Shown: positions 1-6,153 of the stretch, one piece after another
Layout of the letters: each line of letters begins with the position of its first letter
Numbering within the stretch: the stretch's first letter is position 1
Assembly (NCBI GenBank): GCA_016295615.1
Contig: JAEDKW010000001.1
Coordinates: 1 to 53,262 of the forward strand
Source of the DNA: Oscillospiraceae bacterium
GTDB taxonomy: Bacteria > Bacillota > Clostridia > Oscillospirales > Oscillospiraceae
Direction of reading: 5' to 3'
DNA: 53,262 nt
The notes under the pieces: generated by a model
What the model was told of the DNA's origin: nothing
The model's database searches: none
The model's input: the letters and a program-made list of their open reading frames with translations, nothing else
Program-made: the position numbers and the translations under genes

Positions 1-28
1 ATTGAACAAAATAAAAATTTTGTTCAAT
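1..28. repeat. Perfect inverted repeat ATTGAACAAAA-TAAAAA-TTTTGTTCAAT (dif-like, 11-6-11)
   Basis: Bases 1-12 are the exact reverse complement of 17-28. The right arm matches the E. coli dif XerD arm TTATGTTAAAT at 9/11. It lies at the window edge, so it may extend further. Confidence 0.6.
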
Positions 29-280
29 ATAGGGGAGCGGTTTTCCGGAGAAGGGAGAAATTACGGCGTTTTGCCCTTTGCCGGCGGTGCAGATCCTTTT
101 CGCAATGCATCCGGTAAAAATGCACCGCTATACACCGCGAGGTCACAGCGAAATCATTCAGCGCAAAAACACAAGACGACAAGCCGTTCTGCGTGTCTCC
201 TGCGTAATCTCTTTCGGTCTTTTACGTTTCCCATAAAGTGCAGCACGCACAAAACCTTTTTTCGATTGGAGCCGATGCCA

Positions 281-1309
281 ATGCCGGATTACAACACAGA
301 ATCGCCTGCGATCCTGCGCGATTTTCTTTCTTATCATGAAACGATCAAATCGCACTCCAGGCGCACGGTTGACGAGTATTTTTTGGATCTTCGCAACTTT
401 TTCCGCTACCTCAAGCAGGCGCGGGATCCGTCGCTGCGCGACCTGGAGCTCAATGAGATCTCCATCATGGATGTGGACCTCGATTTTGTTAAAAAAGTAA
501 CGATTACGGATGTCTACGGGTACATGTCCTATCTGAGCCGCGATCGTGTGCTGCATCAGAACAGCGATAGTTCCGGCTATGGGCTTAATGCAGCCTCCAG
601 AGCGCGTAAATTGTCTACGATTCGCTCGTTTTACGGCTATTTATGCAACAAAGCGCACCTGTTGGACGTGAATCCGGTCAAGGATCTGGATATGCCGAAG
701 CTCAAAAAGTCGCTGCCGAGATATCTCACGCTGGACGAAAGCATGCAGCTTTTGGATGCGGTTGACGGTCAGAACCGCGAGCGCGACTACTGTATTCTGA
801 CGATTTTTCTCAACTGCGGTCTGCGTATCTCCGAGCTGTGCGGGCTGAATATCCAGGATATTCAGGACGATGCGCTGCGCGTTTTGGGCAAAGGCAACAA
901 GGTTCGCATCGTATATCTCAACGACGCCTGCAAAAACGCGCTGAAGGCATATTTGAATGTCCGCCGACCGATCACGGGTCGTGACAAAGACGCACTGTTT
1001 TTATCGACACGCAACGAGCGGATCAGCCGCTCGACCGTTCACGCATTGGTCAAAAAGCACCTGGGCGCTGCCGGACTGGACGCGTCACAGTACTCCACAC
1101 ATAAGCTTCGCCACACGGCGGCGACGCTGATGCTGCAAAACGGCGTTGATGTCAAGGCTGTCCAGGAGGTTCTCGGTCACGAGCATCTCAACACGACGGA
1201 GATCTACACGCATATCGACAATGAGGCGCTGCGCGTTGCGGCACGGGCCAATCCCCTCTCGCGCGTCAGGCAGAAGAAAAAACCGCTGCCGGAAACCGGG
1301 GATGATTGA
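281..1309 (+). CDS. xerC: Xer-family tyrosine recombinase (clostridial XerC-like)
   Basis: Catalytic set intact: GLRISE (R), GKGNK (K), HKLRH, LGH, TEIY (Y). N-terminal SAM-like domain. Start set at ATG 281 after GGAG at 268-271. Confidence 0.88.
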   Translation: MPDYNTESPAILRDFLSYHETIKSHSRRTVDEYFLDLRNFFRYLKQARDPSLRDLELNEISIMDVDLDFVKKVTITDVYGYMSYLSRDRVLHQNSDSSGYGLNAASRARKLSTIRSFYGYLCNKAHLLDVNPVKDLDMPKLKKSLPRYLTLDESMQLLDAVDGQNRERDYCILTIFLNCGLRISELCGLNIQDIQDDALRVLGKGNKVRIVYLNDACKNALKAYLNVRRPITGRDKDALFLSTRNERISRSTVHALVKKHLGAAGLDASQYSTHKLRHTAATLMLQNGVDVKAVQEVLGHEHLNTTEIYTHIDNEALRVAARANPLSRVRQKKKPLPETGDD

Positions 1310-1321
1310 ACAAAATATTCA

Positions 1322-1351
1322 GGAGAGCTTCGCAGGAAGCTCTCCCTTTTT
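1322..1351 (+). terminator. Intrinsic terminator between convergent xer and amidase genes
   Basis: GGAGAGCTTC-GCAG-GAAGCTCTCC followed by CTTTTT. Confidence 0.8.
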
Positions 1352-1359
1352 GCTGTATT

Positions 1360-1866
1360 TTACAGTCGATATGCGCCTAAAATGTGCAAATAGCGCGCGG
1401 TCACATAGGAATATGTGCTCAAGGGACGGTTGTCGGCATCCTCGGAGTGTGCGGCAAGCAGAATCTCTTCGGGATCTCCCCTCTTCCCCACTGCCACAAC
1501 GACCGGAGAATGCTGAAAGGAGACGCCGTCAAAGGACAGCTGCACGATGTCACCGGGCTCCAGCGCATCGATCCCCTGCTCCTCTGCGATCGGACCGACG
1601 GAACGCTCCGTGCGCGTGAGGAAGTGATAGAGATACGTAACGCCCGTCCATGCAGGTGCCTTCCGGTTGGCGTCAAAATAATACCAGCCGAATGTCGGCG
1701 TGTAGTTCATAACACCGCAGCCGGCATAGATGCACTGTGAAGCGAAATTCGTGCAGTCACCGCCGATATTTTCATAATCGTAGTAATTCGGATTTCTTCC
1801 GTATGCCCAACGGTGCGCGTACGCAACGGCTGCATCGCGGTCGTAGGGCAAAAGCCGGTAAGACAT
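1360..1866 (-). CDS. Putative amidase domain protein (Amidase_6 family)
   Basis: YDRDAAVAYA, GGDCTNFASQ, GDIVQL, H-x-x-VV and AAHS motifs. RBS GAGGGG before ATG 1866. No signal peptide. Confidence 0.8.
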   Translation of the reverse strand: MSYRLLPYDRDAAVAYAHRWAYGRNPNYYDYENIGGDCTNFASQCIYAGCGVMNYTPTFGWYYFDANRKAPAWTGVTYLYHFLTRTERSVGPIAEEQGIDALEPGDIVQLSFDGVSFQHSPVVVAVGKRGDPEEILLAAHSEDADNRPLSTYSYVTARYLHILGAYRL

Positions 1867-1912
1867 AAAAATGCACCCCTCAAACATGATATGCCCGAGG
1901 GGTGCGGAAAGA

Positions 1913-3829
1913 TCAGCGCATGGCGCGCAGAGAATTCAGAATTGCAAGCATGCAGACGCCGACGTCAGCGAAAACAGCCGCCCAGAGCTGTACCATGCCG
2001 AGACTTGACAGCAGCAGGATAATTACCTTTACAGCGATGGAAAATACAATGTTTTCTTTGGCAATGTGCTGCGTTTTGCGTGAGATTTGAATGGCTTTGG
2101 CGATCTTGGAGGGCTCATCGCCCATGATGACAATGTCGGCAGCCTCCATGGCGGCATCCGTGCCGAGACCGCCCATGGCAATGCCAATATCAGCCTCCGC
2201 CAACACCGGCGTATCGTTGATCCCGTCACCGGTGTAAAGTAAAATACCTTGCGGTGATAGGCTGCGCTTGAGTTCCCTGACTTTTGCCAGCTTATCCTCG
2301 GGAAGCAGTGAGGAAAACACCTCGCGGATGCCCACCTCCTTGCCGACGGCTTCCGCCGCGGCTGGGTGGTCTCCGGTGAGCATAACGGTGCGCTTTACGC
2401 CCAGCTCATGCAGCGCCGAAAGCGCCTGCTTTGCATCCTCTTTCGGCATATCCGCCAGCAGGATCGTGCCGCAGAACTGCCTGTCATAGGCGACGCAGAC
2501 CGAAGTGGCGGCATGGGCTGCGGGGGCGGCGCATGGAACTCCGAGTTCGCGCAGATAGCTCTCCCTTCCGACGATCAGTTCTTTTCCGTCAAGCGTTGCT
2601 CTGACGCCGTGACCGGAAAGCTCCTGCACATCGGAAAGGCGGTTTCTGTCGATCTCACCGGAAAAGGTCTTGCAAACGGAACGAGCCAAAGGGTGATCGG
2701 AGTGCGCTTCGCCATAGGCGGCGAGCTCTAAAACCGCTTCACGGCTGAAGCCGTCTGAAGCAAGGATCTCGCTGACGGAGAACTCGCCGCGGGTCAGGGT
2801 ACCGGTTTTGTCAAAAGCGGCAATCTCCGCTCTTGCCAGGGCTTCCAGATGGTTGCTGCCCTTGACCAGAATGCCGTTGTGCGAGGCGCAGCCGATCCCG
2901 GAGAAAAAGGTGAGCGGAATGGAGATGACAAGCGCGCAGGGACAGGAAATGACAAGGAAGTTCAGCGCGCGGTTAAGAAATACAGAGAATGTACCAAGCC
3001 CCAGCAGCGGCGGAAGCACCGCAAGCAGCGCGGCGAGAATAACGACCACCGGCGTATAGACGCGTGCGAAGCGGGTGATAAATTTTTCGCTTTCCGCTTT
3101 GTTTTCCTCTGCATGTTCAACGAGCGCAAGGATCTTGCTGGCGCTGTCTTCGCCGAACGGCGTCGTCACGCGCAGCAGCAGCGTACCGCTCAGATTCACG
3201 CAGCCGGACTTTACCGTATCGCCGATACCGACCTCCTGCGGCAGGGATTCGCCGGTCAGTGCGGCGGTATTGAGCGAAGAACTGCCGCTTTCCACCCTCC
3301 CGTCCAGCGGAATGCGCTCACCGGCATGGACTTCGATCAGGTCGCCGACGCGCACCTCGGCGGCATGGACTTCCCGGACGTTGCCGTTTTCAAAGAGGTT
3401 CGCGGTGTCCGGGCGGATATCCATCAGCGCACGAATGGCGTCGCGCGAGGAATCGACCGCTTTATCCTGCAGAAATTCGCCGAGCTGAAAGAGGATCATG
3501 ACCGCCGCAGCCTCCCCGTATTCGCCGATGCAGATCGCTCCGATGCTGGCGAGCGCCATGAGAAACGTTTCGTCAAACAGTTCGCCGTGCACAAGGTTTT
3601 CCACGGCTTCCTTCAGTATGCCGAAGCCGGCGGCAAGATAGGCGGCAAGAAAAAGCGAGACACTCACTGCGCCCCGGCTCAGCAAGCCGAGGAGAAACAG
3701 GATCGCCGCGGCAGCAAGCCATACAAGACGGGCGGAACCGCTTTTCTCCTCCCCGCCGTGTCCGTGCTCGTGCGCGCAGCAGGCGCAGCTCCGGTCATGA
3801 TGGTGTTCGTGTTCATGAGAATGCGGCAT
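1913..3829 (-). CDS. cadA: Zn/Cd/Pb-exporting P1B-2 ATPase
   Basis: TGES, CPC, DKTGT, HP and GDGIND motifs, TM8 DVG, and a His/Cys-rich N-terminus MPHSHEHEHHHDRSCACC. RBS GGAGGG. Confidence 0.93.
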   Translation of the reverse strand: MPHSHEHEHHHDRSCACCAHEHGHGGEEKSGSARLVWLAAAAILFLLGLLSRGAVSVSLFLAAYLAAGFGILKEAVENLVHGELFDETFLMALASIGAICIGEYGEAAAVMILFQLGEFLQDKAVDSSRDAIRALMDIRPDTANLFENGNVREVHAAEVRVGDLIEVHAGERIPLDGRVESGSSSLNTAALTGESLPQEVGIGDTVKSGCVNLSGTLLLRVTTPFGEDSASKILALVEHAEENKAESEKFITRFARVYTPVVVILAALLAVLPPLLGLGTFSVFLNRALNFLVISCPCALVISIPLTFFSGIGCASHNGILVKGSNHLEALARAEIAAFDKTGTLTRGEFSVSEILASDGFSREAVLELAAYGEAHSDHPLARSVCKTFSGEIDRNRLSDVQELSGHGVRATLDGKELIVGRESYLRELGVPCAAPAAHAATSVCVAYDRQFCGTILLADMPKEDAKQALSALHELGVKRTVMLTGDHPAAAEAVGKEVGIREVFSSLLPEDKLAKVRELKRSLSPQGILLYTGDGINDTPVLAEADIGIAMGGLGTDAAMEAADIVIMGDEPSKIAKAIQISRKTQHIAKENIVFSIAVKVIILLLSSLGMVQLWAAVFADVGVCMLAILNSLRAMR

Positions 3830-3836
3830 AGAACGA

Positions 3837-4208
3837 TCAGCCCTCCATTTCTTCCATAACGTGCTCAAACGCCTTGGCGAAAATGTCGCCAATATGCGAA
3901 TCATCAAGCGAATAATAGACGATCTTGCCCTGCTTGCGGCTTTTGACGAGACGGGACGATTTCAGGATCCGCAGCTGGTGCGAAATGGCAGACTGCGTCA
4001 TGTTCAGCAGCGCCGCAAGGTCGCACACGCACATTTCCTCAATATTCAGCGCACAGATCATGCGTGCGCGCGTGGAGTCGCCAAAGACCTTAAAAAGCTC
4101 CGAGACCTCGTAAATGGGGTCCTCATTGGGCATCTTCTCCCGAACGCGGCGGAGAACGTCCTCGTGAATGACGTTGCTTTCCGTGCAGGACATATCAAAA
4201 GCTTCCAT
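3837..4208 (-). CDS. cadC: ArsR/SmtB (CadC/ZiaR-like) metal-sensing repressor
   Basis: ELFKVFGDSTR, CVC, SAISHQLR and alpha5 site D-x-H...H-x-x-E. Directly upstream of cadA. Confidence 0.9.
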   Translation of the reverse strand: MEAFDMSCTESNVIHEDVLRRVREKMPNEDPIYEVSELFKVFGDSTRARMICALNIEEMCVCDLAALLNMTQSAISHQLRILKSSRLVKSRKQGKIVYYSLDDSHIGDIFAKAFEHVMEEMEG

Positions 4209-4221
4209 CAAAACTCTCCTC

Positions 4222-4283
4222 ATTTGAACGATTGAACAGTTGTTCATATATTCAAATTATAGCGGAAAGATGTGATTTGTCAA
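4222..4283 (-). promoter_or_regulatory. sigmaA promoter of cadCA with SmtB/CadC-type operator
   Basis: Minus-strand TTGACA (4278-4283), 16 nt, TATAAT (4256-4261). Nested dyad ATTTGAA..TGAACA-GT-TGTTCA..TTCAAAT at 4222-4257. Confidence 0.8.
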
Positions 4284-4344
4284 TAGCTCCTGAAAAAAAT
4301 TGACAGAGATTGAAAAAATAGATGCTTTGATAAGCGGCAGGACA

Positions 4345-4373
4345 TTGACTTTACACAACATTTCGTATAGACT
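4345..4373 (+). promoter_or_regulatory. sigmaA promoter of transketolase genes
   Basis: TTGACT-17-TAGACT. Confidence 0.6.
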
Positions 4374-4410
4374 TAGCGTGTTAATAACCAATTATGGTAG
4401 GAGGCATTGT

Positions 4411-5220
4411 ATGACTACGACAGAACTTTCCAAGGTTTGTCTGCAGGTGCGCCGCGATATCATCAATATGACGGCAAATGCCGGCAGCGGACACCCCGGC
4501 GGCTCCCTCTCCTGCGTGGAGCTGATGACCAGCGTGTTTTTTAATCATATGCGTGTGGATCCGGGCAATCCCAAGTGGGAGGATCGCGACCGCTTTGTGC
4601 TCTCCAAGGGTCACGCCGCACCCTGCTACTATGCAGTGCTTGCGGCAAAGGGCTTTTTCTCCCGTGACGAGTATGCGAACTTCCGCCAGCTTCACGGCAT
4701 TCTGCAGGGTCATCCGGACGCGAAGAAGGTCCCCGGTGTGGACGCTTCCACCGGCTCTCTCGGTCAGGGCGTATCCATCGCGGTCGGTATGGCGCTGGGC
4801 GCCAAGCATCTCGGCAAGGACACGAAGGTCTTCGTCCTCGCCGGCGACGGCGAGAGCCAGGAGGGACAGATCTGGGAAGCCTATATGGCCGCTGCTCATT
4901 ATCAGCTGGACAACCTGACCGTCATGATCGATAACAACGGTCTGCAGATCGACGGCACGAATGACGAGGTGATGTCCCTCGGCGATCTGCCTGCCAAGCT
5001 GCGCGCGTTCGGGTTTGAGGTCTTTGAGCTTGCCGACGGTCATGATCTTGACGCGATCGAGGCGGCACTCTCTGCCACCGTTGTGGGAAAGCCGAAGGCG
5101 ATCCTTGCACATACCGTTAAGGGCAAGGGCGTTTCGTTTATGGAAAATCAGGTCGGCTGGCACGGCAAGGCTCCCAACGAGGAGCAGCGTGCGCAGGCGC
5201 TTGAGGAATTGGAGGGTTGA
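4411..5220 (+). CDS. tkt: Transketolase, N-terminal (TPP-binding) subunit
   Basis: SGHPGGSLS, DRFVLSKGHA, TGSLGQG and GDGE..EG..WEA..DNN motifs. RBS GGAGG before ATG 4411. Confidence 0.95.
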   Translation: MTTTELSKVCLQVRRDIINMTANAGSGHPGGSLSCVELMTSVFFNHMRVDPGNPKWEDRDRFVLSKGHAAPCYYAVLAAKGFFSRDEYANFRQLHGILQGHPDAKKVPGVDASTGSLGQGVSIAVGMALGAKHLGKDTKVFVLAGDGESQEGQIWEAYMAAAHYQLDNLTVMIDNNGLQIDGTNDEVMSLGDLPAKLRAFGFEVFELADGHDLDAIEAALSATVVGKPKAILAHTVKGKGVSFMENQVGWHGKAPNEEQRAQALEELEG

Positions 5221-5223
5221 GTC

Positions 5224-6153
5224 ATGAGTGAAAAGAAAGCGACGCGTCAGGCTTATGGCGAAGCCTTGATCGAGCTTGTTGAGAAAAATGATAAGGTCGT
5301 TGTCCTCGACGCCGACCTTGCCAACGCCACACAGACCTGCAAGCTGGCAAAGGCACATCCGGAGAAGTTCTACAACTGCGGCATTGCCGAGGGCAACATG
5401 ATGGACATCGGCGCCGGTCTTTCCACGATGGGTCTTATCCCCTTCTGCTCTACCTTTGCCATGTTTGCCGCCGGCCGCGCCTATGAGCAGATCCGCAATT
5501 CCATTGCCTATCCGCATTTCAACGTCAAGATCTGCGCCACCCATGCCGGCGTCAGCGTCGGTGAGGACGGCGGCAGCCATCAGTGCATCGAGGATATTGC
5601 CCTCATGCGCGTGATCCCCGGCATGACGGTCATCTGCCCGGCTGACGCAAACGAAGCCAAGGCCGCCGTCAACGCGATCGCCGAGCTGGACGGACCTGTC
5701 TATCTGCGTCTTGCCCGCCTTGCAACCCCTGTGTTTGAGGGCGATATGATCAAGCCCTTCACGATCGGCAAGGCAAACGTCCTGCGCGAGGGCAAGGATG
5801 TCGCTCTGTTCGCCACCGGCCTTATGGTCAATGAAGCGCTTGAAGCTGCCAGACTTTTGGAAGCCGACGGTATGGACGCCGCCGTCATTAACGTCCATAC
5901 GATTAAGCCCATCGACGCGGAGTGTGTGACCAGGTACGCTGAAAAATGCGGCAAGGTCGTTACCATTGAGGAGCACAGCGTGATCGGCGGACTCGGCGAC
6001 GCTGTTGCCGATGTTCTTATGGGCAAGGTGAACTGCAGGTTCCGCAAGATCGGCGTGAATGACCGGTTCGGACAGTCCGGCAAGGCGGCCGACGTTCTCC
6101 GTGAGTACGGTTTGACTGCCGACCAGATCGCAGAAGCGGTCAAAAAAGTGTAA
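5224..6153 (+). CDS. tkt: Transketolase, C-terminal subunit
   Basis: GIAEGNM, GEDGGSHQ, IKPID and EEHSVIGGLG motifs. Confidence 0.95.
   Translation: MSEKKATRQAYGEALIELVEKNDKVVVLDADLANATQTCKLAKAHPEKFYNCGIAEGNMMDIGAGLSTMGLIPFCSTFAMFAAGRAYEQIRNSIAYPHFNVKICATHAGVSVGEDGGSHQCIEDIALMRVIPGMTVICPADANEAKAAVNAIAELDGPVYLRLARLATPVFEGDMIKPFTIGKANVLREGKDVALFATGLMVNEALEAARLLEADGMDAAVINVHTIKPIDAECVTRYAEKCGKVVTIEEHSVIGGLGDAVADVLMGKVNCRFRKIGVNDRFGQSGKAADVLREYGLTADQIAEAVKKV

Follow-up and report, generated by a model that had tools for sequence, protein, structure and literature searches.

The first 28 bp of a 53,262-nucleotide stretch of DNA from an Oscillospiraceae bacterium (contig JAEDKW010000001.1 of assembly GCA_016295615.1) were identified as, very probably, a chromosomal dif site that is cognate to the Xer-family tyrosine recombinase encoded beside it. 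The whole of this stretch is referred to below as the window; it comprises all of one contig (C78) in a genome of 1.2 Mb (G000), which is distributed over 132 contigs and rated 94.55% complete. The best explanation overall was that dif and the linked Xer protein alone would resolve chromosome dimers, with the recombinase acting as a homotetramer, and this is considered reasonably probable. A one-enzyme mechanism is also the best-supported reading for this particular genome, in which it is favoured to a moderate degree.

Sequence and symmetry of the site

The dif-type site occupies positions 1–28, with no strand assigned, and reads ATTGAACAAAATAAAAATTTTGTTCAAT, that is, ATTGAACAAAAT-AAAA-ATTTTGTTCAAT; it is unique in its genome, is conserved among relatives and, in these, is located at a switch in guanine-cytosine (GC) skew. 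Since the first and last bases of the 6-bp centre are themselves complementary, the site can be read either as 11-6-11, with arms at 1–11 and 18–28 on either side of the centre TAAAAA (12–17), or as 12-4-12, with arms at 1–12 and 17–28. The generic layout of a dif site, being approximately 28 bp with two inverted 11-bp arms and a non-palindromic centre of 6–8 bp, was present in full. The site also existed as a single copy in its own genome, as is expected of dif; across all 132 contigs, the 12-nt arm was found only at C78:1, at C78:17 on the minus strand and at C78:1305.

The palindrome pattern was matched once in the window, and none of 100 shuffled windows produced any match. Folding of the site as single-stranded DNA gave -9.9 kcal/mol, against -1.37 ± 1.05 kcal/mol for 200 shuffled sequences; none of these was as stable, and the observed value lay 8 standard deviations beyond them. 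G and C accounted for four of 28 bases (14%), compared with 55–60% in the window. No terminator or promoter was predicted at 1–28, and a search of Rfam with window positions 1–1500 (E ≤ 1) returned no match, so that an RNA element was not supported. A LexA box, or some other operator, was also considered because the arms contain GAAC...GTTC; these elements are 14 nt apart, however, while the LexA motif has a spacing of 4 nt, and this candidate was dropped after the terminus data described below.

The palindrome forms the very start of the contig, and so might have been an assembly artefact, created by fold-back at a contig end. Such an origin would be in keeping with the frequency of hairpins at contig ends generally: 9 of the assembly's 264 ends coincide exactly with the opening base of a hairpin (C17, C43, C51, C54, C76, C78, C101, C102 and C114), where approximately 0.05 would be expected. 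The artefact is nonetheless refuted, and is given practically no credence, because an identical 28-bp sequence occurs in the middle of a contig at a related locus (L051) and near-identical copies were present at 78 of 80 loci from independent assemblies. Most of the hairpin-bearing contig ends look like intrinsic terminators, and hairpins seem to be where this assembly breaks. In relatives, too, independently assembled contigs ended at the site, or within about 150 bp of it (position 2 in L075, 26 in L068, 107 in L125 and 153 in L052); this could be a hairpin effect, or could reflect differences between strains at dif, such as inserted elements.

The linked recombinase

The recombinase gene (281–1309, plus strand) is an intact open reading frame (ORF) of 342 amino acids that runs from an ATG at 281 to a stop codon at 1309. 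The 252 nt between the site and the start codon (29–280, plus strand) presumably contain the promoter and 5' leader of the gene, and no consensus promoter, terminator or Rfam family was found in this spacer. The domain composition of the protein was that of the Xer subgroup, combining Phage_integrase (PF00589, 146.9 bits) with the SAM-like N-terminal domain PF02899. The motif of Xer tyrosine recombinases is R-K-H-R-H/W-Y, as set out in the available text of the Castillo 2017 review (PMC5357621), and alignment with E. coli XerD (1a0p) located its members at R182, K204, H274, R277, H300 and Y309; the catalytic residues are thus intact.

The best NCBIfam model was XerC (TIGR02224), with 234.6 bits against a cut-off of 335.15, followed by XerD (TIGR02225), with 224.4 bits against 329.6, and in third place XerA (NF040815), with 200.4 bits against 220; the score for XerS (NF003462) was 150.3 bits against 267. 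By these scores the linked protein is nearest to XerC and XerD, yet it falls under both curated cut-offs. Similarity to XerH (chain 5jjv) amounted to 72 bits, compared with 130 bits for XerD.

The arms were compared with dif from E. coli K12, as printed in the part of Carnoy & Roten 2009 (PMC2731167) that was available. At 9 of 11 positions the right arm is the same as the XerD arm of E. coli, and the left arm is the mirror image of the right; the inner core, CAAAAT-N4-ATTTTG, differs from the CATAAT-N4-ATTATG of E. coli by a single base on each side. The original prediction for this DNA had described a 28-bp palindrome with complementary arms, an intact tyrosine recombinase some 250 bp downstream and a 9/11 match to the XerD arm; each of these descriptions held, the arms being found to pair over 12 bases, the recombinase to possess both domains and the match to be correct against the dif printed in that source.

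Conservation of the site with the recombinase

Conservation was assessed at 80 named Oscillospiraceae orthologs of the recombinase, belonging to Oscillibacter, Dysosmobacter, Hominicoprocola and other Oscillospiraceae. At 78 of these loci a site was present upstream of the ortholog, with no more than 3 mismatches over 24 arm positions; the two loci without an upstream site were L076 and L098. Forty-eight of the 78 sites were identical to that of the window and 52 were perfectly symmetric. The mid-contig copy at L051, for instance, lies 259 nt upstream of an ortholog with 94% identity. The central four bases were AAAA in 44 cases, TTTT in 21, GATA in 7 and other sequences in 6, and were never self-complementary (0/78). 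The distance from site to start codon ranged from about 50 to 1000 nt. The distant sites, at 600–1000 nt as opposed to 50–400 nt, belonged to L067/L008 (-824), L069/L009 (-1002) and L099 (-617).

Elsewhere in the order, other families retained the palindrome with both arms altered together, TTGAAC being replaced by TTAAAC, TTATAC, TTGCAC or TCAAC. These co-varied palindromes included AATTATACAAAAT-N4-ATTTTGTATAATT and others beginning with AATTAAACAAAAT and AATTGCACAAAAT. The 18-bp core ACAAAAT-N4-ATTTTGT was present in 25 of 41 relatives, compared with 2 of 41 for a reversed control pattern, and 23 of the 25 had a single match; two matches each were seen in G026 and G033. The second match in G033 (at 1,475,439) and the match in G037 were both rejected as dif, having other arms or a non-palindromic sequence and no associated change in skew. 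The ortholog itself was recovered from 37 of the 41 relatives, while four incomplete genomes gave only a XerD-like paralog.

Position at the replication terminus

The genome G033 is a single contig of 2,229,578 bp with dnaA at position 325, and its site is located at 1,146,003, or 51.4% of the chromosome. Within 80 kb to its left and right, GC skew changed from +0.077 to -0.100, and the plus-to-minus ratio of long ORFs switched from 46:12 to 9:45; the change fell in the same 5-kb bin as the site. Plus-to-minus changes in skew also coincided with the sites of G040, G016, G021, G028, G027, G035, G030 and G026, although for G026 the right flank was only 1.5 kb long. In G027, the ratio of plus to minus ORFs went from 10:3 to 0:13 across the site. 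The change was partial in G034, where skew went from +0.090 to -0.001 only.

For the genome from which the window came, the evidence for a terminus concerns the junction of two contigs, C57 and C78, with a left flank of only 3.7 kb. C57 is 3.8 kb long, has plus-strand genes for amidase_3 and radA, and shares synteny with the left-hand flank of L051; by this synteny, its end (C57:3762) lies within 5 bp of the outer edge of the palindrome. Skew was +0.10 on C57 against -0.028 in the window, where 13 long ORFs were on the plus strand and 26 on the minus strand. Given this synteny and these skew values, the leftward extension of the contig, which had been proposed as a check on the original prediction, does exist and fits a terminus.

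These data also bear on the view that the palindrome is a regulatory element, either an operator for the recombinase or another dimeric protein, or a terminator of the upstream radA operon. The palindrome does precede the gene at almost every ortholog, a dual role is conceivable, and difSL has been speculated to overlap the xerS promoter, in the portion of Le Bourgeois 2007 (PMC1914069) that deals with it. However, the site may be found apart from the gene, at 8 kb in G033, at 100 kb in G028 and on another contig in G027, and in each it is still a full palindrome at the plus-to-minus switch; because it keeps its terminus position when separated in this way, it is not merely the operator or terminator of a neighbour. 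There is, furthermore, no T-run on either side of it, its stem is rich in A+T, neither terminator and promoter prediction nor Rfam returned anything, its distance to the start codon is variable, and in L051 the radA stop codon is approximately 340 bp to its left. A mainly regulatory function was judged extremely unlikely.

The dif reading offered by the original prediction was supported; all of the computational observations named beforehand as contrary to it were looked for, and none was encountered. The palindrome is conserved among orthologs, and beyond them in families where both arms have changed together; it is essentially single-copy per genome; and it lies at the plus-to-minus skew switch opposite dnaA, independently of a neighbouring gene.

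A second Xer gene and the distribution of the site across Clostridia

The recombinase had been predicted to be a lone Xer gene, and in this respect the prediction failed. A canonical XerD is encoded on contig C97 (362 bits, over the equivalog cut-off of 329.6), and this and the linked recombinase are the only Xer-like genes in the genome; a single-recombinase module in the strict sense would have no second Xer in the genome. Within C97:5152-6838, the xerD gene is directly downstream of an ORF for a multi-pass membrane protein of 255 amino acids that we take to resemble spoIIM. FtsK is encoded on contig C129, with alpha, motor and gamma domains.

The coexistence of two Xer proteins introduces the main rival to a one-enzyme reaction, namely, a classical two-enzyme dif at which the linked protein, as a diverged equivalent of XerC/CodV, forms a heterotetramer with the C97 XerD under the control of FtsK. 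The symmetry of the site would then be due to a specificity shared by both proteins, or to concerted evolution of the palindrome. What decides between the two is chiefly phyletic distribution, which was examined at two scales.

At the scale of the order, 16 genomes from other families were searched with the XerD model (E ≤ 1e-30). Eight of these returned the ortholog of the linked gene only (G026, G027, G028, G029, G032, G035, G038 and G039, which are 90–100% complete), and the core was present in six of the eight genomes without XerD or XerC, that is, in all but G029 and G032. Among the genomes without XerD, the plus-to-minus change in skew occurred at the site in G027, G028, G035 and, with its short flank, G026. 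These absences of XerD rest on draft genomes, which weakens them as evidence for a one-enzyme reaction.

At the scale of the class, the same 301 Clostridia genomes were searched for the core pattern, for the ortholog (E ≤ 1e-50) and for XerD/XerC-like genes (E ≤ 1e-75). The 18-bp core was detected in 145 and the reversed control pattern in 22; the ortholog was detected in 216, representing 120 of 176 genera. Sums by family were taken from tallies for 30 singly listed families (159 genomes); the other 41 families were pooled, giving 57 genomes with the core, 100 with the ortholog and 80 with a XerD-like gene, each of 141. In families without the ortholog the core was found in 5 of 39 genomes, while in families with the ortholog it was found in 82 of 120. 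Where families had the ortholog and no XerD/XerC-like match (f9, f19, f23, f31, f32, f39, f43 and f44), the core was found in 22 of 31 genomes, including 9/9 in f44, 3/3 in f23 and 6/7 in f32. Conversely, XerD was universal in f30 (9/9) and f20 (4/4), both of them without the ortholog, and the core was seen in one genome of each. The presence of the core across genomes therefore tracks the linked recombinase, and not XerD. In at least 41 genomes from other families of Clostridia, no more than 1.3 kb separated the site from the ortholog; the module is not particular to its own lineage, being spread over Clostridia.

Several observations weigh against a one-enzyme reaction, or against the generality of the site. 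XerD is retained in the present genome and in each of the 24 genomes sampled from its genus, and across Clostridia a XerD that is canonical or nearly so is common, a XerD/XerC-like gene being present in 170 of the 301 genomes. In G033, G040, G034, G030 and G037, xerD is positioned beside the linked gene. The best model for the linked protein is XerC, which would suit a diverged XerC partner. Perfect symmetry was missing from 26 of the 78 sites, and the exact core was not found in 16 of the 41 relatives, although some of these had variants differing by one base. The palindrome of G039 was not accompanied by a clear change in skew. The exact core was missing or scarce in some families that do possess the ortholog, such as f33 (0/4) and f26 (3/12). 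Lastly, G059, a genome from the same family but another genus and 100% complete, gave no ortholog (E ≤ 1e-50), no core and no XerD-like match (E ≤ 1e-75), and may use a diverged system or none.

Because XerD is retained throughout the genus, because xerD adjoins the linked gene in several families and because the protein most resembles XerC, we infer, rather than conclude, a one-enzyme reaction for G000; the first two of these observations are also why the two-enzyme reaction keeps some probability here. That the linked gene is the sole other Xer-like gene in the genome is what a XerC partner would predict, as is its location, given that xerC genes tend to lie near dif according to the part of Kono 2011 that treats them. 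However, site and ortholog persist together without any XerD/XerC-like gene in G026, G027, G028, G035, G038 and G039, and in families f23, f32 and f44. Both arms resemble the E. coli XerD arm (9/11) and they change together across families, whereas the arms of classical dif differ in their outer halves, as illustrated in the available section of PMC2731167. On balance, the heterotetramer was thought unlikely. The homomeric reaction is the best reading because the site follows the linked recombinase and not XerD, and because the arms are symmetric and co-vary. As for the single-enzyme idea contained in the original prediction, relatives that have the recombinase and the site without a XerD/XerC-like gene speak for it, while the XerD of this genome speaks against it.

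Comparison with described Xer systems

Classical XerC/XerD-dif, as in E. coli, or with CodV/RipX in B. subtilis, has several features in common with the system described here: the 28-bp 11-6-11 layout, the terminus location and the presence of XerD and of the FtsK gamma domain. It is unlike classical dif in that the outer arms are identical and both XerD-like, the gene is tied to the site, and the site persists without XerD/XerC.

The xerS/difSL module of streptococci and lactococci, as described in the available portions of PMC1914069 and PMC5357621, likewise has the gene beside the site at the terminus, a terminator of its own, probably a single enzyme, and FtsK. Yet the linked protein is not XerS (150.3 bits against a cut-off of 267) and coexists with a canonical XerD; difSL, moreover, is presented there as an atypical 31-bp site with two imperfect inverted repeats, where the site in the window is 28 bp and symmetric. 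The xerH/difH module of Helicobacter and Campylobacter similarly consists of conserved inverted repeats around a variable hexanucleotide, usually beside a single recombinase gene, as the consulted part of PMC2731167 relates; the present protein is only weakly similar to XerH (72 bits, against 130 to XerD) and comes from another phylum. The xerL/dif system of Legionellales (in the available text of Nicholson 2022, PMC9765430) and archaeal XerA/dif are single-recombinase systems for dimer resolution that were found by genomics where the classical pair was not evident. They differ in belonging to other lineages, in that the clostridial module is a prediction from sequence, and in that XerD coexists with it in half of the sampled Clostridia. 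In organisation, the module matches xerS/difSL, xerH/difH and xerL/dif, but by sequence it is none of them.

A dif-linked single Xer in Clostridia is not described in the available portions of Kono 2011, Le Bourgeois 2007, Castillo 2017, Carnoy & Roten 2009, Smyshlyaev 2021 or Nicholson 2022, and a targeted literature search found no description of this one-enzyme clostridial module; the word stem "Clostridi" is absent from the accessible text of the Castillo 2017 review (PMC5357621). The site itself may already be listed as an ordinary dif among the predictions of Kono 2011 or Le Bourgeois 2007. Kono 2011, in the sections available, predicted dif in 97 of 100 Firmicutes, with failure in only two of its Clostridium genomes, and Le Bourgeois 2007 (PMC1914069) reports, in the corresponding extract, a canonical dif in all firmicutes analysed except streptococci and lactococci.

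A putative mechanism

The mechanism envisaged is as follows. One recombinase monomer, expressed from the gene 252 nt downstream, would occupy each arm of 11–12 bp. Once replication had left a chromosome dimer, FtsK would probably draw its two dif copies together at the septum, where strand exchange by four identical subunits across the non-palindromic centre TAAAAA would resolve the dimer; the direction of the reaction would be set by this 6-bp centre. Such a mode of working would be like that of the gene-plus-site modules xerS/difSL, xerH/difH and xerL/dif. We infer binding, formation of the homotetramer, dependence on FtsK and the role of the coexisting XerD from sequence comparison.

The coexisting XerD could have a separate role, for example in the unloading of SMC as in B. 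subtilis. In that species XerD unloads SMC at the terminus, according to a passage of PMC12322038 that cites Karaboja 2021.

Isolated half-sites and neighbouring features

A half-site, ATTGAACAAAATA, identical to window positions 1–13, is found at 1305–1317 on the plus strand, with the TGA stop codon of the recombinase inside it. Between -15 and +150 of the stop codon, a half-site with no more than 1 mismatch was present at 12 of 81 loci, and at 7 of these 12 it started 2 nt before the stop codon, in the exact phase seen in the window. It was absent from the group with 84–86% identity (L052–L070). At L081, L097, L098 and L130, the downstream half-site was followed by a decayed second arm.

The arrangement suggests another possible function, in which full site and half-site delimit a small xer cassette that is mobile or can be excised, or are the scars of an element integrated at dif, and recombination would serve mobility and not dimer resolution. 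The gene is indeed bracketed by a full site and a half-site in the same sense, and the four decayed second arms are what such a cassette might leave behind. Nevertheless, the downstream half-site is confined to those 12 of 81 loci, and a fixed position at the terminus across families, with one copy per genome, is unlike a moving cassette; mobility was considered very unlikely. The half-sites might be what is left of a former second site, might serve for docking, or might be the product of descent and chance.

A mirror-image half-site, TTTTGTTCAAT, occurs at C57:1111 (minus sense), approximately 2.6 kb to the left of dif and directly 5' of a TATAAT-like box upstream of the amidase_3/radA pair. 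It is conserved at position 224 in L051 and at about 330–550 in L054–L059 and L063. The half-site sequence was also noticed within the gene, at about +382, in L010, L011, L013, L016, L020, L074, L078, L081, L082, L092 and L129; it encodes the I-E-Q-N of a conserved motif, and was rejected as a real element in favour of coding coincidence, the window having other codons at that position.

The half-sites enter into a wider reading, which is tentative and on the whole doubtful. Across much of Clostridia, dimer resolution would have passed to a dedicated, dif-linked Xer working alone on a symmetric site, and an ancestral XerD would have become dispensable for recombination, disappearing from many families and being retained in others for a different task at the terminus, such as SMC unloading; the half-sites at 1305–1317 and C57:1111, which flank dif as mirror images, would give one of the two proteins a place to dock and would organise the terminus without recombining. 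Unloading of SMC by XerD is reportedly independent of recombination.

On the 3' side of the recombinase gene, a terminator-like hairpin followed by a T-run is located at 1322–1345 (plus strand), and a reading as a minus-strand terminator also applies. The right-hand neighbours, in window positions 1360–6153, include a putative amidase (Amidase_6, minus strand) and, as we take them to be from their translations, a 664-amino acid ORF resembling a heavy-metal P-type ATPase, an ArsR-like ORF and a split transketolase pair.

Significance

Four single-recombinase Xer systems have been described, XerS, XerH, XerA and XerL, and each changed the view that XerC/XerD is universal. The comparisons made here suggest that a one-enzyme variant of dif is widespread in Clostridia; if this is true, the module would add a single-recombinase Xer system that covers a large share of the class, and many of the genera bearing the ortholog are dominant gut anaerobes. 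In metagenome assemblies that are fragmented, the site would allow the replication terminus to be recognised from a simple sequence, and it is a predicted landing site for mobile elements that lack an integrase. Sister lineages with and without XerD would constitute a natural experiment on the function of XerD where recombination can do without it, and comparison of these lineages may test this function directly.

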